Of a stretch of DNA of 59,141 nt, positions 13,842 through 57,692 are shown one piece after another. The stretch is from a virus (Duplodnaviria > Caudoviricetes), in the IMG/VR virus record IMGVR_UViG_3300035070_001240, positions 1-59,141 of that record, one strand, 5' to 3'. The translations under genes were made by a program, and so were the position numbers. The notes under the pieces were generated by a model. The model made no database searches. It was not told the origin of the DNA and was given only the letters and a program-made list of their open reading frames with translations. The number at the start of each line of letters is the position of its first letter. The first letter of the stretch is position 1.

Positions 13842-14267
13842 TTACGCTGCATTAGCTGAAAGATTAAACATAATGTCTAAACTCTCTGGGCTTTCAACTT
13901 TCATGATTACTTGGTCATCAAAGATAAGTAGAAGGCGAACACCCTTATACATAAACTTATGACCTACATGCCGACCATATGCAATATAATCTCCCTCTTT
14001 ACACCAAGGACCATTAGGAAACTTATTTTCATCTTGATAAGCACTTTGTCCTACAGCTAAGACTTTACCCACTGTAGTAAGGTATTTTACATCTTCTTGA
14101 AATTGATCAGGAAGAAGAATGCCGCCTTTAGTTTCCTTACGAATTGAAACAGGGCGAATGAGAATATGGTATCCAGGAAGTGCTGGAAGTGGATCAGGAT
14201 CAGGTACTAGCTTTTCCGTAATCCAATCATCATTCTTAACGGCTCCACTATATTTAACGTTCTGCAT
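13842..14267 (-). CDS. groES: Co-chaperonin GroES/Cpn10-like
   Basis: PGYHILIRP...TKGGILLP mobile loop, GKVLAVG, GDYI, D-VI. Confidence 0.85.
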   Translation of the reverse strand: MQNVKYSGAVKNDDWITEKLVPDPDPLPALPGYHILIRPVSIRKETKGGILLPDQFQEDVKYLTTVGKVLAVGQSAYQDENKFPNGPWCKEGDYIAYGRHVGHKFMYKGVRLLLIFDDQVIMKVESPESLDIMFNLSANAA

Positions 14268-14589: not shown

Positions 14590-14787
14590 TTATTTTTTCC
14601 TTTTTTTCTGTACGTTTCTTGCTTCACTCAAAGCAATAGCCATTGCTTGTTTTTTAGATTTTACTTTTGGTCCTTTCTTTGAACCAGAATGTAATTTACC
14701 AGCCTTATACTCACGCATAACCTTAGAGATTTTCTTTTGTCCTGGCTTGGTAATTTGTTGAGAAATATTTGATCTATTGATAGTCAT
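14590..14787 (-). CDS. Small basic protein with capsid-like N-terminus
   Basis: KVMREYKAGKLHSGS...KQAMAIALSEAR; start reassigned to MTINRS. Confidence 0.65.
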   Translation of the reverse strand: MTINRSNISQQITKPGQKKISKVMREYKAGKLHSGSKKGPKVKSKKQAMAIALSEARNVQKKRKK

Positions 14788-17700
14788 AAGATAACACTCT
14801 AATACGATTAGCAACTTCTCTAGCTCTGTTTGGAGTCTGTTTTAACCAATCAGATTCTCCACCAGATTTATTTTTTAAAACTTCTTCAGCAGCTTCTTCA
14901 AATTTTCCTTCTTTATATAGTTTTAAAGTTTTTGTAAATTCTTTAACTTTTGGTTTACCCATTTGATAAATCATTTCTGCTAAAGGCCTAGCTCGTCTAT
15001 CTTTAAATCCTGATAATTCTTCAGCATCTTTAATAGCATTAACCCAACGTTCTTGGCTTAAATTATCTACTAAGTCAGAAGAAAATTTATCTCCAACTTT
15101 AATATTTTCTTTACCAACTAATTTTTTAAATGCATCATCTACTAAAACACCAGGACCAACAGTTAATTTTTTTCTAGTATCTCCATAAATAACGTATTCA
15201 TTTGATGCCTTATCAAAATATTTTGGGTTTTTATAAAATTCTGTATTAAATTCATTTGGTTTAACAATAAGATTAAAATAATCTTTGTTAGTATTAAAAT
15301 TTAAGGAATCGCCTTCACCGGCTTGTTCTATAGTTTGATTTTCTTTTACTAAATCAACCAATTCAGAAGGTAACATTTCTTCTAAAGTAGGTCCACGAGT
15401 AATATCTGAATCCATTTTTACTTCTTCTTGTGGAAGATATGTTTCTTCTAATTCAGGTACATAAGGAATTTTTTGTTCTTGTTGTTCTTTCAAAAGAGTA
15501 TCTACAAAATTTTGTAACTCTGGGCTAAGTTGAACATCTCCACCTTCAGCAAATTGTGGAGTAAGGTCTACTTTTTCTTTTAATTCTTCCACGCTAGTTC
15601 CTGTTTCCTTCATAAGAAGTTTCATGACTTCAATAAGGAACTTATCATCACGATCTTTTGTCTTGTTAGTATCACCAGAACGTAGCTTGGCTATTTTTTC
15701 AGCGGCTGAAATCTCTAGATCATCACGTTGAAGATCAAGTTTCTCTTCATCAATAGCAATCTTAGCAGCAGACTGTAGAGACGATAGTTTCAGTTTTTCT
15801 TTTTCTAGGTCTAGTTGTTGCCGTTGTAGTTCAAGGGTCATACGCTCTAGGTCTTCTACAGTACCCATCTCAGCCATACGTTCATTGTTTTGTAGAATTT
15901 CTTGAGCAGCGCCTTGAGTGATTGTAGAAATAGCAGATTCATCACCAGAACCAGCTTGTTCAACACCGGAACGAAGCATACCAGCCATTTGTTCTTCATA
16001 TTGCATAATCATATGGTCACGAATATTTGCTTGAAGAATTGGAACAACTTGTTGCATTAGCGGGTTTTGTCCAAGTGTAGGATCAGCAATAAAAGATTGT
16101 TTTACAATAATGTGAGATTGATGATCTTGACCTGAAAAAGCTTGAATAGGTTGTCCTTTTACAGCTTGTCGAATATCTGAAACTGGATCAAGAGGCTGTG
16201 GTTGAGGCATATCAGGATTAAGGAACCTATTTGGATCAGTGATATTTAAAGCCTCTAGAATTGTACGATTAACTTCCTTCATGTTGTACATACCAGCAGG
16301 AGATTGAGAAGCTAGTTGTAAAACAGTTTGTGCCATTGCAATACGATGGGCAGAAGAAGGAACGTTTGGATCAGATACAGGAATAATATCAATACGACCA
16401 TCGAAGTCTGCTTTAAAGATTTGACCTGTAATCATAGGAATATCAAAAGGATATTCATTTGGCAGATAATCATAGTTAATACGAGCTAGAATTTGAAACT
16501 CGTTACGTTGGCTATGATGTAGACGTTTATGGATTGCACTAAAGAATTTAGTAGAAGCTTCTAGTAGAGCAAGTGTAGTACCTACTGGACCATAGTTAGT
16601 AGAATCAGCTACAACTTGTTCCGTTGTATCAGCAAACTTTTGACCAGTTGCAGATACAAAATTAAGCATTTGCATAAGAGTATTTGATGGCTCTTTATAA
16701 GGTAGAGGAATAATAGCTTTGCTAAGATCAACACCAGTTGCTTCTACTTCTCTAAACTCGCCTGGAGCAATAGGATCGTTTGCACCTACAACTCGTACAC
16801 CACGAGCTTTAAAACCACCAGGAAGATTTGCGAATTGACCTGCATCAACTAGGTTTCGCATTGCAGCCGTAGCTGTGGCTGTAAGGTTTCCAAGAAAATG
16901 GATGTAGCCTAGACCATAAAAACCAAAGCCAGGAACAAACTTATAATGAGTGAACCAGCAAAGTTTTTCTTTTCTTTCATCACTTTCTCTCCAGTTACGA
17001 CGAATTGAAAGAACAGTACGAGAATCAAGATCAACAGTAACAATATAAGGAAGTGCTACTGTAATTTTATCTTCTTCCTCACTCTCATTTTCTTCTTCAA
17101 TCTCCAAATAACAATGATGTTCAAGAAGAGTATATTGTGGATCACTTGTATAGTTTGGAGACATACCAAGAATAGTATCCATCTTCTTACGAAGACTTGT
17201 TGGAGTTACTTCTGTAGGTTCTGGTAATTCTGAGTCAATATAGTCTGGCAGACCATAGAATCCAGTAACAATATCACGCTTTAAATCATTTGGACTGCGA
17301 TAGATAACATGAGTATATCGGTCTGCCTTACGTAGATCAGGAGCATTGTTTGAAACAACGAATTGATCAATAGTTACAAACTCAGAAACAGGACGTTCTA
17401 AAGAAGGATCATAGTAAATCTTTTTAAATGCAGAACCAAAAATTGGTAGATGGAACAACATACGTTCCAGTTCATCAAAATATTCAGTCATTTGGTCTGT
17501 TAGCTGATAGTTCATAAAGTTCTGAACACGATTAGCTTGTTGCTCCTTTTCAGGAGTAGAAAGACCAACAACTTGAGCCTTTACTGGACCTTTTGATGGA
17601 AATAGTTCTTGAATAGCTTTTGATTGAAACTTAACGGAAGATTCAATAATAAGGGGATGAACGGCTGTGCAAGCACCTTCAAATGGTTCAGAAGCTTCTT

Positions 17701-18013
17701 CTAGTTTTAGACCAAGAAGATCAAAGCCACGTTCAAAAGTATCTTCCCAATCTGCACGGCTTTCACGATCTGCTTCATACTCGTCAATTACTTTGTTAGC
17801 AATTTCTTGAAGTTCATCTTTATCTAAAGAAAAGATTAGATTCTCATAATGATCATAAGTTAATTCTTCCATAATTTCATGAAGATCACTCTCAACATTA
17901 TCTTCTTCCATTTCAATTTCTAATTCAAAAGGCTCACTATCAGTCTCTACATTAAAATCAATAATGTTAGAGTTACTTCCTTGTTCTGCAAAAGGATTAC
18001 GTTCAATAGCCAT
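14774..18013 (-). CDS. Portal protein with C-terminal lysozyme-like domain
   Basis: FMNYQL, GSAFKKIYYD, PGFGFYGLG, LPYKEPS portal motifs; C-terminal NE...YGDT..LTVGPG and MIYQMG...W-KQTPNRA match T4-lysozyme-like muramidases. Confidence 0.85.
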   Translation of the reverse strand: MAIERNPFAEQGSNSNIIDFNVETDSEPFELEIEMEEDNVESDLHEIMEELTYDHYENLIFSLDKDELQEIANKVIDEYEADRESRADWEDTFERGFDLLGLKLEEASEPFEGACTAVHPLIIESSVKFQSKAIQELFPSKGPVKAQVVGLSTPEKEQQANRVQNFMNYQLTDQMTEYFDELERMLFHLPIFGSAFKKIYYDPSLERPVSEFVTIDQFVVSNNAPDLRKADRYTHVIYRSPNDLKRDIVTGFYGLPDYIDSELPEPTEVTPTSLRKKMDTILGMSPNYTSDPQYTLLEHHCYLEIEEENESEEEDKITVALPYIVTVDLDSRTVLSIRRNWRESDERKEKLCWFTHYKFVPGFGFYGLGYIHFLGNLTATATAAMRNLVDAGQFANLPGGFKARGVRVVGANDPIAPGEFREVEATGVDLSKAIIPLPYKEPSNTLMQMLNFVSATGQKFADTTEQVVADSTNYGPVGTTLALLEASTKFFSAIHKRLHHSQRNEFQILARINYDYLPNEYPFDIPMITGQIFKADFDGRIDIIPVSDPNVPSSAHRIAMAQTVLQLASQSPAGMYNMKEVNRTILEALNITDPNRFLNPDMPQPQPLDPVSDIRQAVKGQPIQAFSGQDHQSHIIVKQSFIADPTLGQNPLMQQVVPILQANIRDHMIMQYEEQMAGMLRSGVEQAGSGDESAISTITQGAAQEILQNNERMAEMGTVEDLERMTLELQRQQLDLEKEKLKLSSLQSAAKIAIDEEKLDLQRDDLEISAAEKIAKLRSGDTNKTKDRDDKFLIEVMKLLMKETGTSVEELKEKVDLTPQFAEGGDVQLSPELQNFVDTLLKEQQEQKIPYVPELEETYLPQEEVKMDSDITRGPTLEEMLPSELVDLVKENQTIEQAGEGDSLNFNTNKDYFNLIVKPNEFNTEFYKNPKYFDKASNEYVIYGDTRKKLTVGPGVLVDDAFKKLVGKENIKVGDKFSSDLVDNLSQERWVNAIKDAEELSGFKDRRARPLAEMIYQMGKPKVKEFTKTLKLYKEGKFEEAAEEVLKNKSGGESDWLKQTPNRAREVANRIRVLSYDYQ

Positions 18014-23623: not shown

Positions 23624-24139
23624 ATGACTAGCTTACTAAAACAAATCAACGACTACATGGAAACACAGAAGAACGAGATGATGTCAATCACAAACATGGT
23701 TGACTACATGAATAATCTGTTCTTCAACTACAATGACGATTCTCGTCAAATTGCTAACATGACTAATAAAGCTTTAAAGAAACTACCATTTAACGGACTA
23801 AAGAATGAAATTGTTCATTATGGTGGTGATTACGTAATTACCAACTCACTAAAAGACGATGACAAGGACTACATTATGCACTTTGTTCTTCCAGGTCATA
23901 ATCACAAGACCGTTGACGTAGCAAAGCGTGATCGTAACATTATCATCAAGTCAAAAGAATTAAACAAAGATGATGCAGATTATAGCTCAACTTCCTATTA
24001 CTTCTATAAGTCCATTCCTCTTATCAAGAAGAGTTTTGAAGTTCAATCCGTTGTATTCAAAGATGGCATTCTAAGTATTGCCCTCAAGGATATGGAAGAA
24101 CCACCAAAGGAAGAACTACTGGAGATTACTCAGGGCTAA
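23624..24139 (+). CDS. Small heat-shock protein (Hsp20/alpha-crystallin family)
   Basis: LPG...V-V...I-IK, FKDGILSI-L, C-terminal LEI motif. Confidence 0.8.
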   Translation: MTSLLKQINDYMETQKNEMMSITNMVDYMNNLFFNYNDDSRQIANMTNKALKKLPFNGLKNEIVHYGGDYVITNSLKDDDKDYIMHFVLPGHNHKTVDVAKRDRNIIIKSKELNKDDADYSSTSYYFYKSIPLIKKSFEVQSVVFKDGILSIALKDMEEPPKEELLEITQG

Positions 24140-24801: not shown

Positions 24802-25902
24802 TTATTTAAATAAATTCCTTTTAATTTGTTCAATATCATTTTCAACCATATCAAATACAAGCTGCTTGAATGAAATAGATGGTTGCCAATTTAGATTTTC
24901 TCTAATCTTTGTACTGTCTCCTAGTAAATACTCAACATCAGAAGGACGATAGAAACGAGAATCAATCTTAATCAAAACTTCCTTTGTCGTACCATTCTTG
25001 TTAACAGCATATTCATACAGTCCCTTTCCTTGCCAATTTAGAATAATTCCAATCTTCTCAAAGGCCATATTGCAGAAATCCTTGACACTGTATGTTTCAC
25101 CAGAAGAAACAACATAATCCGTAATCTTACTTCCAGAAGTATTCAACATCAAATGCATTGCCTTGACATAATCCCTAGCATCTCCCCAATCTCTACGAGC
25201 ATGAACATTTCCTAACATGATTGGACCTTTGTTCTTGCCCGTAGCATATTGAGCAACACCATTGGTAATCTTTCTTGTTACAAAGTCCAATCCCCTACGA
25301 GGAGATTCATGATTAAACAGAATACCATTGACTGCATATGTGTTATATGTTTCACGATAATGTTTCACAGTTAGAAAAGCAGATAACTTGGCAATGGCAT
25401 AAGGAGACGTAGGCTTAAATGATGATTGTTCAGATAAACTTTTTTCAGTCCCTGTAGCTTCGTTACCAAATAATTCAGACGTAGAAGCTTGATAAAATCT
25501 AAACTGTTTTTTAAATACCTCTGTAAAGGCTTCCAGAAGCCCTACAACAGCAACTGCATTAATCTGGTGGGTGAGTACAGGAATTTTAAAACTCTCTCCT
25601 ACGTGGCTCTGAGCGGCTAGATTATACACTTCAATATAATTATCCATGATTGTCATGTAACTTGTCACGTAAGACTTAATAGTTTCCACAAATGATTTGA
25701 TAGAACCGTTATCTAAAAGATCAAGATTGATCAAAGTTAGATTAGGATGATCAATTAAATTGTGTAAACGAGTGTTATTGGATAGTGGAATGGATGTACG
25801 TCGAATACCAGCATAGACCTTATATCCGTTTTCTAGAAGATATTCCGCAAGATATGAGCCATCTTGTCCTGTAATACCAGTTATAGCAGCTAGTTTTTGC
25901 AT
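24802..25902 (-). CDS. gmd: GDP-mannose 4,6-dehydratase
   Basis: ITGITGQDGSYLAE, NLAAQSHV, YQASTSELFG, SPYAIAK, GILFNHESPRRG, FVTRKIT, RDWG. Confidence 0.95.
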   Translation of the reverse strand: MQKLAAITGITGQDGSYLAEYLLENGYKVYAGIRRTSIPLSNNTRLHNLIDHPNLTLINLDLLDNGSIKSFVETIKSYVTSYMTIMDNYIEVYNLAAQSHVGESFKIPVLTHQINAVAVVGLLEAFTEVFKKQFRFYQASTSELFGNEATGTEKSLSEQSSFKPTSPYAIAKLSAFLTVKHYRETYNTYAVNGILFNHESPRRGLDFVTRKITNGVAQYATGKNKGPIMLGNVHARRDWGDARDYVKAMHLMLNTSGSKITDYVVSSGETYSVKDFCNMAFEKIGIILNWQGKGLYEYAVNKNGTTKEVLIKIDSRFYRPSDVEYLLGDSTKIRENLNWQPSISFKQLVFDMVENDIEQIKRNLFK

Positions 25903-27319: not shown

Positions 27320-27385
27320 ACTGGACCAAGCCGGGGTTCCGACCCTATTATTAATCATCCTTACTATTATTAGGAGGAAACAACT

Positions 27386-27565
27386 ATGACTAAACTTACT
27401 GAACAGCAAAAGCTTGCGTTGTACAGGATTTATTCTCGTGATTGGAATAAACCTTCTAGCTATCTAGCGTTTCGGCGTACTGTTCAACAAGGGTTTGATT
27501 GTATCATGGTGCCATACTGCGGTATGTGGCTTGGCATCGAAACAGATGGATATACACACTCTTAA
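27386..27565 (+). CDS. 59-aa early protein (not in ORF track)
   Basis: MTKLTEQQKLAL...GMWLGIETDGYTHS; AGGAGG SD. Confidence 0.75.
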   Translation: MTKLTEQQKLALYRIYSRDWNKPSSYLAFRRTVQQGFDCIMVPYCGMWLGIETDGYTHS

Positions 27566-27579
27566 CATAGGAGGTAATC

Positions 27580-27753
27580 ATGGATAGCCTATATCGTTTC
27601 GCATTCAACGGTCGTAAGAATGAATACGATGAATATGTTATTAAGGCTTGGCGTAATGGTAAGCGTTATGAAAAGGGTGACTATTACACTGATAACTACG
27701 ATGACGCTGTAAATACTATGAACTTGCTTCGCAAGGAGTATTACGATGACTAA
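27580..27753 (+). CDS. 57-aa early protein (not in ORF track)
   Basis: MDSLYRFAFNGRKNEYDEY...; AGGAGGT SD. Confidence 0.7.
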   Translation: MDSLYRFAFNGRKNEYDEYVIKAWRNGKRYEKGDYYTDNYDDAVNTMNLLRKEYYDD

Positions 27754-27949
27754 AAATTTCTATCAAAAATCACCTAGCATTCAGTTGTTTCTTAAATCAA
27801 TATCTGTGGGGGATATTGATAAAGGCGAGTGTCCTACCTGTGGTGATAAGATAGGATCATTTAGGGATACATTATCTGAAAAAGAATATTCTATCTCAGG
27901 TATGTGTCAGTCATGTCAGGATAATGTTTTTGGATTGGAGGAAGAATAA
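27746..27949 (+). CDS. Small zinc-binding protein
   Basis: CPTC...EYSISGMCQSCQD. Confidence 0.7.
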   Translation: MTKNFYQKSPSIQLFLKSISVGDIDKGECPTCGDKIGSFRDTLSEKEYSISGMCQSCQDNVFGLEEE

Positions 27950-28566
27950 TGACTAATATGCATATAACTAAACTTACTGGCAAGCTTGATGGGTTTCGTT
28001 CGTTGTCTTCAAATACAACAACTAATCCTTTCTGCATCAAGATGAACGCAACGACCAAAGATAACATTATCTGCAAAGAATGTTATAGCATGTCTATGCT
28101 CAAAGGATTTCGTAAGAATGCTGCACCAGCCTTACAACGAAACAATGATCTATTAGCTAGTCGTATTCTTGAACCCCATGAAATACCTACGATCCTTGAT
28201 AGGTTCTTTCGTATTCATGCTCATGGTGAAATCCTAAACCTTACACATGCTATTAATATTCTGAACCTTGTTAAAGCTAATCCGCATACTACATTCGGTT
28301 GGTGGAGCAAGCGTAAGGATATTATCAACAAGCTATTCTCTCCGTCTTATGGTGGGTTTGGATTTAAGAAACCATCCAATCTAATCATGATCTATAGCAA
28401 TCCTAAGATTGATGATGTTATTGATACGCCACCTAAATGGTTTGATAAGACGTTCAACAACGTTACCAGCCATCCGTCTGAGAACTGTACTGGACAACGC
28501 TGCAAGGATTGTCTAGTCTGCTACACCAACAACGACACCAACACTATTATTGAGAAGGTAAAATAA
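27949..28566 (+). CDS. Gp88-like Cys-rich protein (radical-SAM-related fold suspected)
   Basis: C...C..CY, RIHAHGE, WSKR, PSNL, C-terminal C....C..C..C. Confidence 0.6.
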   Translation: MTNMHITKLTGKLDGFRSLSSNTTTNPFCIKMNATTKDNIICKECYSMSMLKGFRKNAAPALQRNNDLLASRILEPHEIPTILDRFFRIHAHGEILNLTHAINILNLVKANPHTTFGWWSKRKDIINKLFSPSYGGFGFKKPSNLIMIYSNPKIDDVIDTPPKWFDKTFNNVTSHPSENCTGQRCKDCLVCYTNNDTNTIIEKVK

Positions 28567-28568
28567 CA

Positions 28569-28757
28569 ATGATTATAGATAGTCAACTAGAACAAGGTCG
28601 TATTGTAGCTATTAAAGCTCTACGTACTTTGATTGAACGTGACGAGTGGAATCCGATTGAAGCGTTGGATCATGTTATTATTGAATATGGTTTAACGCCA
28701 ATGGAAATTGTAGAGTTTGAGAAAAAAGTAAAGGAGAAATACCATGATTTTATCTAA
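28569..28757 (+). CDS. Hypothetical early protein
   Basis: Operon packing. Confidence 0.5.
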   Translation: MIIDSQLEQGRIVAIKALRTLIERDEWNPIEALDHVIIEYGLTPMEIVEFEKKVKEKYHDFI

Positions 28758-28923
28758 TCTTGAGCTTTCTATCTTCAATAATATTAAAGATAAAAAGCCT
28801 GAGATTACGTTTTGTTCTCGATTACATGACAATGAGTTAACAATCTGGAACAAGATGATTTTCAAGTCTATCGTCCTAGAATACTGGTATGAGGAGTATC
28901 CTGAGTATGTCGAATCCCTTTGA
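28744..28923 (+). CDS. 59-aa hypothetical (not in ORF track)
   Basis: AAGGAG SD; MILSNLELSIF...EYVESL. Confidence 0.55.
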   Translation: MILSNLELSIFNNIKDKKPEITFCSRLHDNELTIWNKMIFKSIVLEYWYEEYPEYVESL

Positions 28924-29170
28924 TAAAGAACGTGAAGCTTACAACGCCTATGCTGTGTATGTTAATCCATTAGACTTAGCTGAATACAGGATCATTAAAA
29001 CATTCGATGATCCTAAATTGGAAAACGATAACAGTAACTGGCTAGTCGTAACTCGTAACATGTGGAGTGGTGATTATGATGATGTAAAAAAGATTAAGGC
29101 AAGAGAAGTAAAAAACTATTCTTTCCTGTTATCCTGTACAGACGATTGGAGTAAACACTATGCGTCTTGA
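28907..29170 (+). CDS. Hypothetical early protein
   Basis: GAGGAG SD before MSNPFDK. Confidence 0.55.
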   Translation: MSNPFDKEREAYNAYAVYVNPLDLAEYRIIKTFDDPKLENDNSNWLVVTRNMWSGDYDDVKKIKAREVKNYSFLLSCTDDWSKHYAS

Positions 29171-29261
29171 TGACAAGATTGAACTAGTTATTATCCTAGC
29201 CGTAGTTGCTATCGTTGTTTCAACTCTTCTGATTATGAAAGATCACACATGGCCTATCTGA
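29160..29261 (+). CDS. 33-aa single-TM peptide
   Basis: GGAG SD; MRLDDKIELVIILAVVAIVVSTLLIMKDHTWPI. Confidence 0.5.
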   Translation: MRLDDKIELVIILAVVAIVVSTLLIMKDHTWPI

Positions 29262-29320
29262 TGCTAAAACAAATAGCTATCATCTCTATCTGTGTAACTA
29301 TTCTAATCCTTCTAACATAA
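29249..29320 (+). CDS. 23-aa hydrophobic peptide
   Basis: MAYLMLKQIAIISICVTILILLT; overlaps the upstream ORF end. Confidence 0.3.
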   Translation: MAYLMLKQIAIISICVTILILLT

Positions 29321-29343
29321 ACTAATAGAGGAGCATGAAACTT

Positions 29344-29514
29344 ATGACTAGTGCCATTAAAATCTACAACAATTATGAGGAGATTCCTTGGATAGTAACA
29401 GACTACATTCTATCTGTTAGTGACGCAGATAATATCTACGAAATACCCCTTGACGAAATCAACGATTTTCTATACAACTTAGAAGATCACTATGAAACGG
29501 CTAATCAGGAGTAA
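29344..29514 (+). CDS. 56-aa acidic protein (not in ORF track)
   Basis: GAGGAG SD; MTSAIKIYNNYEEIPW... Confidence 0.55.
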   Translation: MTSAIKIYNNYEEIPWIVTDYILSVSDADNIYEIPLDEINDFLYNLEDHYETANQE

Positions 29515-29521
29515 CATAGCC

Positions 29522-30454
29522 ATGAACAACATCGTAAATCTTAACAACGTCATCATGAACCCGTTTGAACAGAGCTTTAATGGAAGCGTCTTAGACTTCA
29601 GCATCACAACTGGTGAAGTATTTACACCAATGTTTGAAGAGTCTTCTGGTGAGAAGAAGGCTGTAATCAAGATGGATGATAATGGTAATCCTGTTGATTG
29701 GTGGGTAGTGGGTAAAGACTACTACGTAAAATCACATAGGGATTTCTTTGGATCAATCGAACGTGAGCTTATGAATAACATTGATCCTAATCATCTGTCT
29801 GGTGTTGAGATTACGACAAAGTCTAGTCGAGGTGGGCGTTGGGGTATGCGTCAATATGTTTTCCCCAACGTTACTTGTCCCGTTGAAACCAATACAGGAT
29901 TTACAACTGATATTAATCTTCGTATTGTTTCCTGGTCAGGATTGGATGGAGGTACTGCAAACAATTACATCATCGGATTGTTTGATGGGTACTGTCTAAA
30001 CGGTTGTGTGTTTACTAGAGCAGCTAATAAAAAAGATGCTTATGTAAAGCGATACAAGCGTAACAGTAAGAACTTCAATCTTGATTTCTTCTGCGCTGAT
30101 ATTATGAATGCTGTAGAGGTATTCTATGAACAGTCAAAAGAGTTTCAGTTGATGGCTCAAAAGCCTCTATCCCTTCAACAAGGATGGGATTTTATTGAGA
30201 ATATCAAAACATTCTCTGAGGCTAAAAAAGAGTCAATGAAGGAGTTGTTTACTCGTGAATTAACTGTACGGGGTAACAACGTATTCAGTCTGCATAGTGC
30301 CTTCACTAACTATTCTTCACACAAGAATGATGATCTGTTTCGTAGTCGTACTACTAAACACGAAGATGTAGAGGCAGAAATCCTCTTCAAGCGTGAAGAA
30401 GAAATTACTAACATTCTCAACAGCAATAGCTGGCGTGAATTGTTAGCAGCCTAA
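29522..30454 (+). CDS. DUF932-like early protein
   Basis: VGKDY...H..FF, SGLDG, CLNG, NVFSLHSAFTNY..H; start moved to the ATG after AGGAG. Confidence 0.6.
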   Translation: MNNIVNLNNVIMNPFEQSFNGSVLDFSITTGEVFTPMFEESSGEKKAVIKMDDNGNPVDWWVVGKDYYVKSHRDFFGSIERELMNNIDPNHLSGVEITTKSSRGGRWGMRQYVFPNVTCPVETNTGFTTDINLRIVSWSGLDGGTANNYIIGLFDGYCLNGCVFTRAANKKDAYVKRYKRNSKNFNLDFFCADIMNAVEVFYEQSKEFQLMAQKPLSLQQGWDFIENIKTFSEAKKESMKELFTRELTVRGNNVFSLHSAFTNYSSHKNDDLFRSRTTKHEDVEAEILFKREEEITNILNSNSWRELLAA

Positions 30455-30465
30455 TCTTACAAATA

Positions 30466-30500
30466 GTCTAGGCCAGTCTGTTATTCGGGCTGGCCTAGAC
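30466..30500 (+). other. 15-bp hairpin without U tail (processing or stabilising stem)
   Basis: GUCUAGGCCAGUCUG-UUAUU-CGGGCUGGCCUAGAC. Confidence 0.6.
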
Positions 30501-30546
30501 ATGTAATCTAAACATTTTATGGAAGTTAAAGAAAGACAACTAAGCA

Positions 30547-30663
30547 ATGAGTATCATCAAATGTTCTAAATGTGAAACAACTGCAACTGTAATTCTGGAC
30601 AATATGTATTATTGTTCAGTGTGTGGACTTAAAAAAGTAAAAGGAAACCATCGTCATGACTAA
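30547..30663 (+). CDS. 38-aa zinc-ribbon peptide
   Basis: CSKC...YCSVC. Confidence 0.5.
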   Translation: MSIIKCSKCETTATVILDNMYYCSVCGLKKVKGNHRHD

Positions 30664-31093
30664 TCCAATCAAGCGTGTTCAAGTCTATTGGAACGTTCAC
30701 AAAGAATGCTGGTCAGTACGTGATAAGAAAACAAACAAAGTAATTGCTCATACTGATTCTATCATGTTGGATAATGCTAGATTTGTAGTACATGAATCTG
30801 GTCGTAAACGTGTGCTACGTGAACAGCGAAAGAATGTACATGCCTATGTAGAAGGTGATGTTTGTATTCGTAGCTATACTAATACAGATTATGCCATCTA
30901 TAAAAAGATGGATAATCCTGTACAAGTACGTTATAATCCATACCAAGGTAATAGCTTCTATCTAAACAATCCTAACTTCCATAACGATAAGATTAAAAAA
31001 GCTATTACTGAAGCTAACTCTACCGTTGTTATGAAAAAGTCTAATAACGGCAAAGGTAAAGTCTACATTGATTATAACAAGGAGTTTATCTAA
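30656..31093 (+). CDS. Phage protein of unknown function
   Basis: VYWNVHK..WS...GRKRVLRE.RKNVHAYV.G...YNPY. Confidence 0.65.
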   Translation: MTNPIKRVQVYWNVHKECWSVRDKKTNKVIAHTDSIMLDNARFVVHESGRKRVLREQRKNVHAYVEGDVCIRSYTNTDYAIYKKMDNPVQVRYNPYQGNSFYLNNPNFHNDKIKKAITEANSTVVMKKSNNGKGKVYIDYNKEFI

Positions 31094-31267
31094 GCACATG
31101 GATACATCAATACTATATCCTTCGTATGTTGAACAGTCTATTCGCAAGTCTGATGGTGCTGTCTGTACTTGGGTAAAGGCATATGCTGTATTACCTAAGC
31201 ATGAAATAGTAAACTATTCCAGCGAATGGATTCTTGTGAACGTAAAGAAACCGTAAGAGTAATAACT

Positions 31268-46762: not shown

Positions 46763-49045
46763 TTATTCACCATACAGAGATTTAAAATCTGGTTTTATTG
46801 TATAGTTAGACCCTCTAAACAACGAAGGGGCTACACCTTCTCCATAAACAAATATATCCATATCAACCTCATTCTCTCTGTTTAGCAAAGCCTCAAAGTC
46901 TTGAGACAAGGCTAATAGCTCACCAGTTGTATAGAATATATCTTCTTCCTTTGTCTTTGGATTTAGAATACCAATTTTAATCCATTTCTTCTTTCCATAC
47001 ATATCGACTTCATCAAGGTCTTCTGGAACACCTTCATGGCAGCAGTCCATACCAAAGATATGAAACTCTCTGAAGCCTAGTGTATGTCCGATACCAATTG
47101 TACGCATTGCAGAGCAAGTACCGCCAGTAATAAGTTCCTGATCCTGTAACTCTTGCATGTCAATAAGAGCGTTTGTGTAAGCATGCCAGCCAATAATGTT
47201 AGCCCCTTTCTCAACAAGATACTTTGTAACATCAATGTTAGTCATGCTTGCGACAAAGTACTTTACCTTTGGATGAGGATCAGCTAACAATTCTCTACGA
47301 ACAATACCGTGCGTAGATGTTCCATCAAATGGACGAGGATCAAGAATAACACAACCCCAAGGAATGATACCATTCTCAATCAATGTATTATGAGAATGCT
47401 TAACACAGAAAACCTTTGCTCCGTGCTTCTGAAGTTCCTTAATCTTATCTAGATTTTTTACAAGAGAAGGACCAGCGGAAGCTAAGACAAGTTTACCATG
47501 ATGCCAGTGGCAACGCTGTACCATATTATCATTGAACAACTTCATGTTTTCACGAACGTTGTTTTGAATGTTATCAGGGGGTACACAATCTCTTGGATTA
47601 ACTTGAACAGGAACCTTGTGTGTATCTGGTGGATTTGGAAGGCTAAGATCATTCAGAACAACAGCAAGGTTTACATGTCCACCACCGGCTACTCTATCGC
47701 CCGTAGAGATAATGAACCTACGTTGTTCACCCGTACGATCAGTACCACCTAGTTCCTTATAAATATCGTTGACGCCTAAAAACTCTGTAGGCATTTTTCC
47801 TTGTTCATCTTCTGTATAATAATCATCCAGAACGATAACAGGAATGTCCTTACAAAGCTCATAGTCACTACGTACAGTTTCAGTAGAATGTCCACCATCA
47901 ATGAAAACAAAGTCAGGCTTTACATTATACATATTACAAAGGCTAGGATCGTTTAGAATACTTAACTTACTTTTTGAGTCGCCCTTCATTAGATAAAATG
48001 TTAAAGTCTTATTTATCTTTGCGTACTCTTTAGCAAGATCAGTTAGCTTTAGTTCAACAGACTTCTTTGTATAATGCTTCTTTACATTAAACTCTTCCTT
48101 ATCTGTTTCATCCGTAGCGTCTTCAAATAGATCAATACCAGTGTAGTGAACAGTGTCGTTAGCCTCAAAGGCAGATTGGATCATTGCACAAGCTGTATCG
48201 CCATTCCATGTGCCAATCTCTAGAATGTTCTTACGCTTATAGTGTTTGACCATAGCACATAGATCAACATACCTACGTGCCTTGAAGTTTGGATTATTTC
48301 CAGAGCCGTACTTCTTGTTACCCTTTAGATGAACAATATGATTACCTAGAGGAGATAAATCAAAAGCATCTAGTCCTTCACAGTTCGGTGTAAGATCATG
48401 TGTAACCATGCCATGAGCTTCATGTAGAATGCGAAGACGATCAAAGACATAGTTATCAGCAAAGCATTGTAGCTTTAGAACCTCGTCTGAATTATAGTAG
48501 TTAACATAATCAGTCATGAAGACTTCTACTATGCCAGGATTGATATTATAACCAATAAGAGAAGAACATGTGGCATAGGCATTCTTACGGCCTAGATAGA
48601 CTATATCAGCTTCATCGTTAAATGTCTGGCTTAACAACTCTTCTGTGATAGGCTCATACGTTACACTGTCCGCATCCAACCAAATCAACCACTGTGCATT
48701 TCCACCATCACGGTCTAGAAGATAATTCATAGCCATGTGTTGAGCGTATACCTTGTGGCTAAACTTCACGGCATCTTGATAGAAGTTATACGTATTCTTT
48801 CCAGCCTTACCATCAAACTGTTTGTTACGTTCCTTAAATTCAATTAGCCGGTCATTGTCTAGTAGATCAAAGTAATGAATGTTATCGGCTTTAGGAGCGT
48901 TGTCTGGTAGGGGATAACCATCACAATAACAAAGAAGTTGAATATCCTTCGGCCAATATTCAATGAAGCTATTTAGAAAACGTTCACCATATACATCCCA
49001 ACTTTTAACTGGAAAAGATGTAACAATCGTGTATTTATTTGACAT
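46763..49045 (-). CDS. Tri-domain glycosyltransferase-like + SAM methyltransferase + DUF115/Maf-like protein
   Basis: WLDAD; LEIGTWNG, FIDGGHS, LDDY; ASAGPSL and LGFREFHIFGMDC. Confidence 0.75.
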   Translation of the reverse strand: MSNKYTIVTSFPVKSWDVYGERFLNSFIEYWPKDIQLLCYCDGYPLPDNAPKADNIHYFDLLDNDRLIEFKERNKQFDGKAGKNTYNFYQDAVKFSHKVYAQHMAMNYLLDRDGGNAQWLIWLDADSVTYEPITEELLSQTFNDEADIVYLGRKNAYATCSSLIGYNINPGIVEVFMTDYVNYYNSDEVLKLQCFADNYVFDRLRILHEAHGMVTHDLTPNCEGLDAFDLSPLGNHIVHLKGNKKYGSGNNPNFKARRYVDLCAMVKHYKRKNILEIGTWNGDTACAMIQSAFEANDTVHYTGIDLFEDATDETDKEEFNVKKHYTKKSVELKLTDLAKEYAKINKTLTFYLMKGDSKSKLSILNDPSLCNMYNVKPDFVFIDGGHSTETVRSDYELCKDIPVIVLDDYYTEDEQGKMPTEFLGVNDIYKELGGTDRTGEQRRFIISTGDRVAGGGHVNLAVVLNDLSLPNPPDTHKVPVQVNPRDCVPPDNIQNNVRENMKLFNDNMVQRCHWHHGKLVLASAGPSLVKNLDKIKELQKHGAKVFCVKHSHNTLIENGIIPWGCVILDPRPFDGTSTHGIVRRELLADPHPKVKYFVASMTNIDVTKYLVEKGANIIGWHAYTNALIDMQELQDQELITGGTCSAMRTIGIGHTLGFREFHIFGMDCCHEGVPEDLDEVDMYGKKKWIKIGILNPKTKEEDIFYTTGELLALSQDFEALLNRENEVDMDIFVYGEGVAPSLFRGSNYTIKPDFKSLYGE

Positions 49046-49052
49046 TTATTGA

Positions 49053-49820
49053 TTAGTCCATTAAATGGTTGATGATAAAATTCTTTGGAATTGATTGTAG
49101 ATAGTCAATCCAAACCTCTCCAAAGTCACAGTTCTTGTACTCCTCAAACCAAGGTCCACCCTTTGTAAAGTGAATAGCCTTTGGCTTCTTTCCGTTGTTG
49201 GTTACACCAGGAACAAAGTTCCACTCTTCTGGTAAAGGACCAATGGCTTCATTTTTAGTCCATTTAAACTTATGAAGATGGGAACCTTTAGAATTATTTA
49301 CTGTGATATGATCTAGTTTCTGTACATCAGGATGGCTCAGATTGAACATCATCAATGATGACCAAAGCTTCTTTGTGTAACGAGTTTGTAAAACGTTATC
49401 CATTTTGTATCGTTCTTTTTCATCTGGAATCCAGTTAAACTTTACACACATTACAGAATAACGATCATCAGCTAATTCAAATAGCTTTTTGATGTTTTCA
49501 AGAAACACAACATCACCATCAACAAAGATAGCCCAGCCATCCTTTCCTTGTTGCCTACATATTTCAGGTACTAGAAATCTACTAAAGGAAAACTCAGTAG
49601 AGAAAGGCTTACTGTCGATAGTATCGAAGTACTGTCCAGTCTCTGAAATAAAAGCTTTACGATAGTAGAGTTTTTGTTGTTGAAGGTTTTTCTTATTGAG
49701 AAAGTCTACTGATACGTTATCATCACCTACTTTTAGATTTGAGATAATGCTGTATTTGCAGACAATAGAAGCCAGGGCTTCACGAGGGTCATAACCCACG
49801 AAGACATGCTTGTTTGACAT
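49053..49820 (-). CDS. GT-A glycosyltransferase (GT8-related)
   Basis: VFVGYDPRE, STEFSFSRFLVP, FVDGD, WSSLM, HFTKGGPWF. Confidence 0.8.
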   Translation of the reverse strand: MSNKHVFVGYDPREALASIVCKYSIISNLKVGDDNVSVDFLNKKNLQQQKLYYRKAFISETGQYFDTIDSKPFSTEFSFSRFLVPEICRQQGKDGWAIFVDGDVVFLENIKKLFELADDRYSVMCVKFNWIPDEKERYKMDNVLQTRYTKKLWSSLMMFNLSHPDVQKLDHITVNNSKGSHLHKFKWTKNEAIGPLPEEWNFVPGVTNNGKKPKAIHFTKGGPWFEEYKNCDFGEVWIDYLQSIPKNFIINHLMD

Positions 49821-49903: not shown

Positions 49904-52900
49904 TTAATCTCTTGTAAGAAGTCCTAGCCTACGTAGAGTAGCCTCCTCTGCCATTGGCCGTGCATTCTTTCTTATGCTACGCATGGCTACACCCCTATCT
50001 GTTTGACCCAGAAGTTCTGTAGCAATTCTATTTCTTAGGGCTTCACTTTGAATATTAATAATTAAGTCTGGACGTTTTTCAGTTGCAGCCTCTCTATTAA
50101 GATCAGCTATTTCTTTATAAATATCCCGAACAATATCAGTTTGTTTTTTATAGTTTGACATATCACCCTTAGTATATTCCAGGTTAGCTAGATTGATATG
50201 CTTTGCAAGTTGTGAATAATAGTAATCTTGAATACCCTTTGTTTCACCTTGTAAGAATTTATAATATTGCCGTTGTTGCCTAGCTTCTGCAACAGACTTA
50301 GGAGTAAAGCCAAAAGCTTTAGCAAGGTTTTCAAGTGTTCCAATTTCTTTAGAAGGCATTAATACTCTGCCTTGAGTTGTACGTACTGGTTTATCAAGGA
50401 ATTGAGTAGCGGCTGCATCGTAGGCATTTCTAACACCAATGGGTAGGAAAGCAGTTGCAAATTCAACAGCATTAAATTCTTTTTGTTTTAACGCCTCACG
50501 TGCCTTACGAGCAGAATCAATAACAACGCTTCCAGTTGGTCCATATGCAACGGATAGATCACCAGCCATAAGATCAAATGGAATAACTTCACCAACACCT
50601 ACACGGCGTCTAAGGTCAATGCCGGTAAGCTGTCCAAATACACCGCTCATTAAGATGTCGTTAGCTACGCCTGTAATTCCAAAGTTAGCTAAGGTTTGTC
50701 TCATTCCGGTTTCAAGATCAAACTCATAGTCACTTACTTCTTTAGACAGCATTTGGAGAAGTTGTTTCATATTCTCCATCCAAGGAAGTCCCATAGCTCC
50801 AGCAAAGAAAAGCATACTTAAAACCATAGAACCTAGTAATGCGCTTCCTAGTTTCTTGTCTACCTTTGCAATTGATAGTGCTTGAGCATACAAACCAACA
50901 TAGTTAATAACATAAGGCATAAACTGTGTAGCAACATTCAAAAATCCTTTATGGAATAGCTCTGGCCTGTTTTCCTTACTAATTAGAAACTGTGTCTTCA
51001 TAACCATCATTTCAGCGGCTTGAGTTGGAGTTGTCTTACGAGTAGAATACACAGTATATTTTGAATAATCGTCAAGCTTCTTGAGATTACTTGGAGATTT
51101 CTTTGCTAATCTGTATGCCGTTAAGGCAGTTGTGATACGGTTAATTTGCTCTATCGCACCAAACATGAAAGAACTAGCTTCTAAAATTTTTGCACCAGCT
51201 TGAGCAGCGTTAGGTGGTAAGCTATTGTTCAACTCTCCCAATGTTCTTGTTAGATTGGCTCCAGAGTCGATACTTGTTACAGCTTGAATAATGCCACGAG
51301 AGTGAAGATCACGTAGCATGTTCCATTCATCTTGATTAATTTTACCTTTTACTTGTTGAGGAACTGTTGGGCTTTCAAAATTAAAACCATAAGTATCTAA
51401 ACGATCCTTAGAAAGCTTAAATAAAAGTCTAGCATCGTTCATTGCTTTGAGTAGTTCTCTTGTTGAGCCTTTTCCAACAACAACTTTTAGAACTGGAAGA
51501 GTAGCAACAAATAGCTGTGTTAAGTTAACAATAGCAGAACTAAAGTTCATGCCAATTGTATAATGGAATGTTAGTCCTTTTAAAACAGAACCAGCATCAG
51601 CAGGATCATTGATATTTTCAACTAGCTTTTCAGCAGTTGTAACTAGTTTATTATTTTTTCCTACTTTTTCTGCAAGGTTATTTAAAGCTGTTCTCATAGG
51701 ACGATAGTATTCAAGGTTTGAGGCAGTATCTGAACCTGTACGAATATAATTACTTAAAGAATATGCAAGATAATTATCAGCAGTAGCAGGAGTATAATAA
51801 CCATTAACGACATTTTTAGCTTCTCTAGTTTCAAGAAACTTATTAAAGCCATCTGTAGTAATCACTGTTTCTAACTGTCCAATAAATTTTTTTACTTCAT
51901 CACTATTCTTGTTATATCCAAAAGCATCTGCCAGTCTTTGAAGTATACCAATATCCTTAACATCTAATTTTTTTAGAATATCATCCTTAGCTTCTACTCT
52001 GTTGTCTATTTCAGATATTGTATATCTTTTTGAATCAGCATAAATACCACTTTCTTTTAGTTGTTTTAATCTTTCATTTAATCTCTTTCTTTGATCTCGG
52101 ATAAAACGAGGAGTAAAATCGCTATCTAAAATTCTTGGAGTACTGGTTTCATAGTGAATAATCTTTTTAAGTTTATTATCACGGACAGTAAAGAAAAAAT
52201 CTCCTTGACGTTGGCGAGGAATATAATATGGATTACGGGTTTTTGTTGTTTCGTAATCATTAATAAATTTAATAATATTAAGCTGAGATATTACATTATC
52301 TATTAAAAGATTTTCTCTACTTCCTTTTTTAAATGTATCTTTATTATCATCTTTAAATTTAGTTAAAATTTGAGTTGCTAGTTGATTACTATTTAAATCT
52401 TTTGTATATGATTCTAAATCCATAATATTAACAGTAATTGGATTTTTATTTCCTCTTGGAATAATTTCAAAATTTAAAGTAGAAAGAGGAACTAATTTTG
52501 CAAGATCATTTAGATACATACGAACTGACTGTCTAATCTTATCATTAAGAACAGTCATTGTATCTCCCTGTGCCTCTTTAATATTTCCATATAGAGGAGC
52601 TTTTTGTAAGAAGAAGCGAATGAAGCTACGACCAACCGTTTCATACATACGGTCAAATCCTTGTCTTGCTTCATTATATTTATCAAAAAGCTTTTTAGGT
52701 AAGCGAATGGTTCCAGGCTGAACATTAAGATTAGCTAGAATAGTTCTGTATTGATCTGCATCAATATCCGTAGATACTTCATTTGTTTCAGGATCAATCG
52801 TAGCAACTGGTTCTGGAGCAATAGTTAGAATTGCATCTCCAGTTTCTTTATCTACAGTTAATTTAACTTGTTTAGAAGTACCAAGAGCATCAAGAATAAC

Positions 52901-55718: not shown

Positions 55719-57692
55719 TTATTCCTCTGGTTTTTTCTTAAATTCAAATGTAGGAAGTGTACCAAAATTTTTCTGATAAGCATTTACTAATGCTTGGTAA
55801 TAAATCAATTGTTGATCATATATTGCTTGAGCTTTTGAAGTATCTGTTCCAGGAACAGCTTTTGATATTTGTTCAGATGCTGTTTCAAGAATTGGTTTTA
55901 ATGCTTTCATTTGTTCAAGAAGAGTATCTCTATCTAAAGTCATTGCATCTCTGTTAGCTTTAGCCCTAGCAGCGCGTGTTTGACCTTCATAGTATTTATT
56001 AAGTCCTGCAACTTGTTGACGTTTTAGTTCAAGTTTTTCAGCTTCTGTTTCAGCTTCTCTCATTAGCTTTTTTGCACCAGCAAATTCTTTTAGACCAGCT
56101 AGAGCAGCAGTAGCTGTATCTTGCCCTGGTCTAGTAAATTGTGCGGCAGCTTGAAAATAAGGAAGTGCAGCTTCAAGATTAAAGAATGGTTTTTCTTTTT
56201 TATCGTCTTGATTAGGCTTACCACCTTTTTCTTCATCATAAGGAATATTTAAAGAATCACCCTCACCAGCTTGTTCCATAGCTTGTAACATTTCAGACGA
56301 TAGAGGAAGATCAGCTATATCCTCCATAGGAGTTTTTACACTATAATCTAAAGTTGATACATCAAATTCATCAAGTACAGGTATAATTCCTTCTTCCTCT
56401 GCCTTTATGTATCTTTGCCTTATTCTTTCATCACGTACTTCTCTTGGTTCGCTTATAAACTCAATCAATGGTCTAGTATACCAAGGTTTTGTTGATCCAC
56501 CCTTGTCATATTTCTCTACCATTCCACCATTGGCTAGTCCTACTAAGCCACCCTCGGCACCAAATAAAGGCTTACCAAGACCAGAGGCAATACCAGCAGC
56601 AACTGAACCAGCACCAAGAAGTTGTTGACCAAGGCTAGGTGGTGCTTGATAAGTAGCAGCAGTTTTATAAGTAGATGGTTGCATTTGGAATCCACGATAG
56701 ATACCGCTAAGGTCTTGAATTTGCTGTAATGGATAAGTTTGCTGTCTTGCAAATTCTTCATAAGCAATGTCAAGAGGCTGTTGTTGTAAACCACGTTGAG
56801 CTTCACCAGCAGCTTGTAAAGCACCTAGACCTGATAATCCAAGAGCTTGTTCTGATTGACCTAACTGAGCAAATTGAGTAGCTCCTGCCATTTTAGTAGC
56901 TTGATCTGCACGGAATTGTTGAAGTGCAGATTCATATGCTTTTTGAGAACCTGTAGCTTGAATATCACTTAATCCACGTTGAGTAGCTTCTTCACCAAGC
57001 ATACGCTCTAAAACATCACGACTACCACCAAAAGCTCGTGCCTTTCCAGCAAGAGCAGCGCGTTGTTGTTCACGCCTTGTAGCTTCTTTTGCAAATTCAC
57101 GTTTTTGAATATCTGTAACAGCTTGTTGAAAAGGTGACATATATTTTTCTTGAAGCTGTGTTGCACTAATATCACCAAGTCCAGCTACTCCTTGAGCAGC
57201 TAGTCCTTTAGCAATATCTAATTCTTGTTGAGCAGGGGCTTTGAAAGTACGTTCACCAGTTACAGGATCAACTTCAGTAAGAAAAGACTCAAGACCAGAA
57301 AAAGCTACACGTTGTTCTGGAGTTACTTCAGCGAGACGTTGACCAGTATAGGGTACATAAGGTTCTTCATAAGCTTCTTCTGCACGAGCAAAAAGACGTT
57401 CTACATATGGCTTTGCATATTCTGGAAGATCAGATACTTGTTTAACAACCTGTTCTGAAGCAGGAGGAGGAGGAGGAGGTGAACCGCCACCACCAAAGTA
57501 CTGAACAAGATTAGTACACTTGTTTACAGTACCTGATCCACCCATAGCACGAAGAACAGCGGCTTCATATTTATTAACATGAGCAAGTTCTGTGTCACCA
57601 TTAATACCACAATCAGCAATATCATTATAAAGCTGATTAAATAGTTTAATCTTTTGTTTAATTGTTAGCTTATCAAGAACGATCTTTTTCAT
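55719..57692 (-). CDS. Internal virion / DNA pilot protein
   Basis: GDTELAHVN..EA..L...GGSGT, PYTGQR.A, YMSPFQ..V, AFGGSR; Q/A/G-rich. Confidence 0.7.
   Translation of the reverse strand: MKKIVLDKLTIKQKIKLFNQLYNDIADCGINGDTELAHVNKYEAAVLRAMGGSGTVNKCTNLVQYFGGGGSPPPPPPASEQVVKQVSDLPEYAKPYVERLFARAEEAYEEPYVPYTGQRLAEVTPEQRVAFSGLESFLTEVDPVTGERTFKAPAQQELDIAKGLAAQGVAGLGDISATQLQEKYMSPFQQAVTDIQKREFAKEATRREQQRAALAGKARAFGGSRDVLERMLGEEATQRGLSDIQATGSQKAYESALQQFRADQATKMAGATQFAQLGQSEQALGLSGLGALQAAGEAQRGLQQQPLDIAYEEFARQQTYPLQQIQDLSGIYRGFQMQPSTYKTAATYQAPPSLGQQLLGAGSVAAGIASGLGKPLFGAEGGLVGLANGGMVEKYDKGGSTKPWYTRPLIEFISEPREVRDERIRQRYIKAEEEGIIPVLDEFDVSTLDYSVKTPMEDIADLPLSSEMLQAMEQAGEGDSLNIPYDEEKGGKPNQDDKKEKPFFNLEAALPYFQAAAQFTRPGQDTATAALAGLKEFAGAKKLMREAETEAEKLELKRQQVAGLNKYYEGQTRAARAKANRDAMTLDRDTLLEQMKALKPILETASEQISKAVPGTDTSKAQAIYDQQLIYYQALVNAYQKNFGTLPTFEFKKKPEE

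Follow-up and report, generated by a model that had tools for sequence, protein, structure and literature searches.

Tether anatomy of the portal and the ejection protein

The window analysed here is the complete IMG/VR virus record IMGVR_UViG_3300035070_001240, a stretch of 59,141 bp. It comes from a marine phage with a podophage-like (short-tailed) gene set that includes T7-like replication genes. The element in question is a decapeptide, EQAGEGDSLN, encoded twice on the minus strand, once in the C-terminal part of the portal protein and once in a 657-amino-acid (aa) ejection protein. An initial annotation of this DNA reported that the two copies differ at four nucleotides, all synonymous, and that both follow a GG motif and an acidic linker with similar LP-SE stretches. 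All of this is borne out by the sequence. The four differences are third-position transitions, and the linker stretches read LPSE and LPLSSE. A weaker EQAGSGD lies earlier in the portal, as had also been noted, in a stretch whose sequence and length vary among portals of 52-57% identity. The main features are as follows.

14774..18013, minus strand: portal gene, 1079 aa, with portal fold, coiled-coil barrel, tether and C-terminal hydrolase (phrog_1216)
14777..15283, minus strand: T4-lysozyme-like (GH24) putative cargo domain, about aa 911-1079 (phrog_13211, T4 lysozyme chains)
15299..15328, minus strand: decapeptide EQAGEGDSLN, portal copy, aa 896-905, GAA CAA GCC GGT GAA GGC GAT TCC TTA AAT; module breakpoint directly past N905
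15299..15553, minus strand: acidic portal tether, aa 821-905, with the decapeptide at its end (sequence, BLAST)
15533..15553, minus strand: FAEGGDV, the [FLM]xxGGxV motif opening the portal tether, aa 821-827 (seen in printed long-portal tails)
15941..15961, minus strand: weak copy EQAGSGD, portal aa 685-691, after a conserved QYEEQ/QYQET block
55719..57692, minus strand: gene of the 657-aa ejection protein (phrog_4287, "DNA ejection protein")
56193..56507, minus strand: hypervariable mosaic acidic linker of the ejection protein, aa 396-500 (alignment A2, DNA mosaic pattern, AF2 pLDDT 24-49)
56235..56294, minus strand: 20-aa present/absent block EMLQAMEQAGEGDSLNIPYD holding the ejection-protein decapeptide, aa 467-486 (alignment of 21 clusters)
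56247..56276, minus strand: decapeptide EQAGEGDSLN, ejection-protein copy, aa 473-482, GAA CAA GCT GGT GAG GGT GAT TCT TTA AAT
56517..56537, minus strand: LANGGMV, the GGxV motif opening the ejection-protein linker, aa 386-392 (G389, G390, M391 and V392 invariant in 21/21 sequences)

The portal fold spans aa 157-765 and matches phrog_1216 (PHROGs profile, E=4.4e-36), which places the protein among portals. It has 597 relatives in IMG/VR, is 37-58% identical to hundreds of portal genes and is about 40% identical to the portals of pelagiphages HTVC023P and HTVC027P and of Roseobacter phages CRP-901 and CRP-902. We read the heptad-like, charged stretch after the fold as being of coiled-coil type. 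The C-terminal domain starts five residues past the decapeptide. Matches to phrog_13211 (aa 931-1071, E=1e-6) and to T4 lysozyme chains (aa 961/1007-1077, E=5.7e-6) mark it as a putative GH24/T4-type lysozyme; a Pfam scan of this domain gave no match at E up to 0.01.

Long portals form a subset of this portal lineage. In the best 80 IMG/VR portal loci of the 597 relatives, frames of at least 900 aa occur in 18, and the remainder stop after the barrel. Loci with the extension include L003-L008, L014, L035, L054, L055, L060 and L063-L067, and the corresponding tail of the window lies at 14774-15553 (minus strand). The long-portal tails that were printed begin with the GG motif and end in varied hydrolases (GH24-like, SLT-like and others), and the [FLM]xxGGxV motif is missing from all seven short portals with C-termini inspected. 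The portal extension is an accessory cargo arm, in which the linker tethers a swappable peptidoglycan hydrolase. A further 15 records with ejection-protein homologues include 13 with a portal, none with a portal frame above 900 aa; all 13 count as short, with lengths of 803-877 aa or frames interrupted by contig ends, and provide no further test of island sharing. Among short-portal genomes, G012 encodes an SLT domain at the N-terminus of a separate basic 485-aa protein and G008 a 168-aa lysozyme, and no tether-like context was found around either. Portal tethers of another clade (L063, L065, L067 and L054) contain tandem repeats of about 20 aa (LSPTDASMFEAMQSLPEVKP), whose S-M-F-E-A-M-Q part resembles SEMLQAMEQ upstream of the ejection-protein motif of the window. 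The 77.8-kb IMG/VR record G014 carries two separate portal-like frames of 812 and 803 aa and may be a concatenated or chimeric assembly.

The ejection protein matches phrog_4287 over aa 88-373 (PHROGs profile, E=2e-13). This region is followed by a Gly/Ala-rich hydrophobic stretch, LANGGMV, the hypervariable acidic linker, a conserved segment and a coiled-coil C-terminus. The gene lies just upstream of that of a 1935-aa giant protein, in the same order as in the related genome G001. The order recalls T7 genes 14-16, and we take the 657-aa protein to be placed like T7 gp15. A search of solved structures with this protein (P0002) returned no match at E up to 1. The N-terminal 65 residues (aa 2-65, GINGDTELAHVNKYEAAVL...GGSGT; 57498-57689, minus strand) share 51% identity with part of a protein of Methylophilales phage Venkman and lead into a poly-Gly/Pro hinge. 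Homologue P0010 carries DIADLPLSSDIS three times in tandem, and otherwise near-identical homologues have two alternative, unrelated C-terminal ends (alignment A2, columns ~640-768). The [FLM]xxGGxV motif itself recurs at portal-tail starts and in several internal or ejection proteins of distant clades, for example as FKEGGAV, LKDGGEV, MKDGGSV and FAGGGSV (G001 27328-31262; G002 3-971 and 51362-53269; window 15533-15553 and 56517-56537).

A shared island and its recombination footprints

EQAGEGDSLN is the sole exact word of at least seven residues shared between different open reading frames (ORFs) of the window, out of 114 that were compared (stop to stop, 80 aa or longer). When the residues of these ORFs were shuffled 300 times, the longest shared word was six residues in 173 cases, seven in 116 and eight in 11, and a word of nine or more never occurred. 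A chance origin of the sharing is therefore excluded. The likeness is also wider than ten residues, reading Q[T/A][I/M]EQAGEGDSLN and then a hydrophobic residue. BLASTP with the motif included aligned 81 aa of the portal and ejection linkers at 32% identity (E=0.002), and the ejection protein was the best match of the portal tail among all other ORFs of the genome (E=3.5e-4). The initial annotation had called the two virion proteins unrelated, which holds for their folded domains. The two linkers, in turn, are probably related, judging from this alignment.

The decapeptide has the setting expected of a short linear motif, as a conserved island in a low-confidence, hypervariable segment. In the AF2 model the ejection-protein motif falls at the end of a short helix (466-474) followed by coil, with pLDDT 26-33, and its flanks are hypervariable in 21 homologues. 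Over the full length of the ejection protein the model is of poor quality (mean pLDDT 39), and it served solely to show that confidence is low around the motif.

Module breakpoints coincide with the motif in both genes. Portals of five loci or clusters (L001, L002, L096, P0025 and P0026) are 97-98% identical through EQAGEGDSLN and carry an unrelated SLT-like domain straight after N905. The alignment of the lysozyme-type tail of the window to that of P0028 (41% identical, same lysozyme type) begins at DYFNLIVKPNEF; the P0028 tail has no decapeptide, and its linker consists of three PEEMQP repeats. The ejection proteins were compared as 21 clusters (alignment A2), of which the first 395 residues align nearly gap-free. 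The decapeptide block is present in 10 of the 21 clusters and missing from 11. One of the ten block-bearing clusters (P0014) differs in the residues past SLNI, and three different sequences follow SLN[I] among the ejection-protein clusters overall. Many ejection sequences hold a related GGFEDDLNI or SGEGDII element. At the DNA level, the block and the next ~270 nucleotides (nt) of the ejection gene are 97-100% identical in backbones that are 60-70% identical upstream, and therefore the block has spread recently by recombination.

Chimeras with a crossover at the motif are found as well. Portal cluster P0027 (35 member sequences) carries two tandem decapeptide copies (...IEQAGEGDSLNLDTVKDYSYMEQAGEGDSLNFNTNEYY...) with hybrid flanks. 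In the portal locus L103 the first tandem copy is intact, and the second has portal-type codons and is decayed (G to D, S to F, N to K). The ejection gene of L188 is chimeric: its island codons are of ejection type (29/30), and the 33 nt past the island, encoding PDEARAMAEAA, match the portal gene throughout. Over the two bins scored, identity to the portal reaches 30/30 compared to 9/30 for the ordinary ejection allele. Crossovers between portal and ejection genes therefore occur at the island.

Related genomes were searched for peptides of their own that the two proteins share, and the outcome was split. A second clade, represented by G002 (portal 52-53% identical to that of the window), has KPGGTV-(14 aa)-EQLGTGSDIY in the portal tail and KGGGEV-(11 aa)-EELGTGANLY in the ejection protein. 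The best 10-residue window of this pair scores 39, reached in 0/500 shuffles; the pair of the window itself scores 51, also reached in 0/500. The G002-type island pattern was found in 15 IMG/VR stretches, nine portal tails and six ejection proteins, and nowhere else. The G002 match emerged with similarity scoring only, and exact 7-mers shared between portal and ejection protein are missing from G001, G002 and G003 alike. The third clade, G001, shows only an E[AS]G[MF]G.D resemblance and failed the same test, as is taken up below.

The initial annotation attributed the identity of the two copies to selection on the peptide. A scan of IMG/VR and JGI metagenomes for the back-translated decapeptide matched portal and ejection-protein contexts only. 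The codons are GCC..GAA GGC in every portal-type copy (six distinct contigs, the window included) and GCT..GAG GGT in every ejection-type copy (five contigs), which amounts to three synonymous differences that are fixed, without any replacement. The copies agree in 6/10 codons (7 against relatives), which fits the 4.8 predicted from codon usage (probability of at least six, 0.32). Three to four changes that are all synonymous have a probability of about 0.002-0.03 under neutrality. The codon pattern thus suggests purifying selection on the decapeptide, with evidence that is real but modest. Constraint in this sense stands, with ten residues kept and three synonymous sites fixed. The idea of convergence does not, and much of the identity stems from shared ancestry and ectopic recombination.

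A Cpn10/GroES-like gene (PF00166, E=4.5e-9; 13842-14267, minus strand) lies between the portal and scaffold genes, a position kept in all seven short-portal relatives inspected. An Hsp20-like small heat-shock gene (phrog_432, E=7e-7; 23624-24139, plus strand) adjoins the terminase genes. Three enzyme genes are scattered in the minus-strand late-gene region (46763-49820 and 24802-25902, both minus strand), encoding a 760-aa methyltransferase and MptE-like protein, a GT8-like glycosyltransferase and a nucleotide-sugar epimerase. These may serve a glyco-modification of the virion or the DNA.

Docking, recombination relic or processing site

We suggest as the best explanation, at an evenly balanced level of confidence, that the decapeptide is a conserved short linear motif in paralogous tethers, homogenised by ectopic recombination, kept by purifying selection and docking in the pre-ejectosome. 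The decapeptide would be the most conserved part of a disordered tether module, which comprises an [FLM]xxGGxV opening, an acidic spacer and a terminal island, E-[QE]-x-G-x-G-x-x-[LI]-x plus a hydrophobic residue. One copy forms the portal C-terminal extension, from the end of the barrel to the swappable peptidoglycan hydrolase, and the other lies in the middle of the 657-aa ejection protein. The two genes swap short stretches by ectopic recombination with the island as crossover point, and such exchange would keep the island alike within a clade, while purifying selection would hold the peptide as codons drift. To the observed tether anatomy, recombination footprints, synonymous-only divergence and second-clade replicate, the explanation adds that the peptide would bind a partner, presumably a component of the pre-ejectosome. 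The island might dock both tethers in the same socket of a pre-ejectosome stacked on the portal barrel, so that packing and subsequent release of the portal-borne hydrolase would be coupled to those of the ejection protein. We prefer docking as the likeliest function because the island looks like a typical short linear motif, and because the portal tail emerges exactly at the place where, in podophages of solved structure, ejection proteins interlock with the barrel and carry the hydrolase (PMC12002296 and preprint 10.64898/2026.05.18.726046).

A number of observations weigh against a docking motif. No binding partner of the decapeptide was identified. A complex prediction of ejection-protein aa 448-500 with the capsid protein (128-row alignment), a 361-aa scaffold-like protein and a 146-aa neighbour returned a score of 0.00, which weighs neither way on binding. 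Clade G001 is without a significant shared peptide, its best score being reached in 53/500 shuffles. The GxG island was not seen in 11 of the 18 long portals, which belong to other sub-lineages. The G003 portal carries the decapeptide and the G003 ejection protein does not. Because 11 of the 21 ejection clusters are without it, some with the looser GGFEDDLNI or SGEGDII only and P0011 without the entire linker, the decapeptide is dispensable or replaceable in the ejection protein. The selection signal rests on just three to four substitutions, and including three upstream codons brings in two conservative replacements. Ejection-type copies are identical in DNA even in backbones just 60-70% identical, and their uniformity therefore reflects recent spread rather than long conservation.

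A rival account is a recombination relic without any peptide-specific function, which we consider improbable but a serious contender. The island would then be microhomology between paralogous linkers and their alleles, and its identity would result from gene conversion and the ordinary constraint on a coding linker. The direct chimera in L188, the tandem duplication in P0027, the mosaic ejection gene with its ~270-nt block, the presence-absence polymorphism and the modest statistical signal for selection are all consistent with it. However, at three synonymous sites the portal and ejection copies have fixed different nucleotides, and conversion is therefore not recent in the clade of the window; even so, the ten residues show no replacement. 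The E-Q-x-G-x-G pattern moreover survives between clades with otherwise unalignable linkers, and in L103 the redundant copy has decayed beside an intact primary copy.

Proteolytic processing is the main rival to docking as a function of the peptide, and we regard it as unlikely. Cleavage in or beside the motif, for instance behind the invariant Asn or at E|Q, would release the twelve hydrolases from their portal tethers and detach the C-terminal half of the ejection protein, with a host protease, an unrecognised protease or assembly-triggered self-cleavage as the agent. Several viral capsid proteins self-cleave after Asn, and the head proteases of T4 and phiKZ type cut after x-x-E. The motif ends exactly at the start of the exchangeable cargo, and the residue past Asn is always hydrophobic (F, L or I). 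Cleavage would also solve how a portal-bound hydrolase exits the head. The tether, which we estimate at ~85-90 residues, seems too short for a barrel-attached hydrolase to reach the periplasm. The shared protease site proposed in the initial annotation lacks a protease, though, with no match among 57 ORFs scanned against PHROGs and 14 against Pfam. In the head module, a scaffold-like protein is encoded apart from the 309-aa HK97-fold capsid protein, the usual place holds no protease gene, and the module looks protease-independent. Many ejection proteins are without the site, the residue past the second-clade island is not conserved between the two proteins (the chimera excepted), and no genes came to light that are split so as to end or start there.

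Chance resemblance, or a signal in DNA or RNA instead of protein, has nothing but the shortness of the motif in its favour and is effectively refuted by the shuffles without a shared 9-mer and by differences confined to third codon positions, which show that the protein and not the DNA is conserved. The lack of an opposite-strand ORF of at least 100 aa at either site also speaks against it. Known motifs with some likeness to the peptide (GDSL-lipase block, RTX nonapeptide, EF-hand loop and GxGD protease motif) were dismissed on account of different domains downstream, ill-matched spacing or a non-membranous context.

Module exchange guided by a motif has precedents, and so do movable hydrolase domains. 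A full-text literature search, with subscription journals outside its coverage, found no description of a portal-hydrolase fusion, of a portal tether paralogous to an ejection-protein linker or of concerted evolution of a peptide island between portal and ejection genes. Should the decapeptide indeed act as a signal for docking or release, this would account for the loading and discharge of a hydrolase covalently attached to a podophage portal, and phage heads could be loaded with foreign domains by means of a minimal tag. Even read conservatively, the locus offers a clean natural case of two processes, concerted evolution of two different structural genes within a single phage and module exchange guided by a ten-residue island.

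Comparison with known systems

Recombination at conserved motifs is known from mosaic phage genes, as in Botstein's modular theory and the His-box and glycine-island crossovers in T-even tail-fibre genes. As in the tail fibres, a short conserved coding motif borders exchanged modules here and chimeras cross over at the motif. In contrast to the tail fibres, exchange also takes place between two genes of one genome, portal and ejection protein, and the motif resides in disordered linkers of internal virion proteins and not in fibre shafts. In T4 and phiKZ-like phages, short peptides common to several internal head proteins direct loading or cutting. Unlike in those head systems, no head protease or T4-type scaffolding core was detected in the ORF scans of the window (57 in PHROGs, 14 in Pfam).

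Podophage pre-ejectosomes offer the closest structural setting. In cyanopodophage A4 the helices of the portal barrel are interleaved with ejection proteins, one of which bears the hydrolase domains (PMC12002296). A preprint on the phiKMV-like phage Ar-KM describes a lysozyme domain placed modularly among ejection proteins (preprint 10.64898/2026.05.18.726046). In such podophages ejection proteins (T7 gp14/15/16, A4 gp26-29 and those of Ar-KM) stack on and interlock with the portal barrel, and a movable hydrolase module is shared with the clade of the window. The difference is that in the clade of the window the hydrolase is fused to the portal itself via a tether.

Encapsulin targeting peptides, given as native NTGGDLGIRK and consensus DGSLGIGSLKG (PMC7925596), provide a further comparison. 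The encapsulin peptides differ in their C-terminal position and terminal basic residue, whereas the motif here is internal and acidic. Both are short, rich in Gly, Ser and Asp, and hold a pair of hydrophobic residues spaced one apart (GDSLN-I/F/L and DDLNI in the present motif as against GSLGI and GDLGI). This spacing after G/D-S/D recurs in SLN-F/L/I and DLN-I, and the cargo of an HK97-fold shell would be concerned in both. A doubtful extension is that portal tails and ejection proteins carry a clade-specific "address peptide", which would plug into a common socket of the pre-ejectosome or the capsid interior and co-vary within a genome. Any enzyme domain recombined behind it would then be loaded onto the portal. 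Such a peptide would be a phage counterpart of the encapsulin targeting peptides, possibly released by scission after the invariant Asn.

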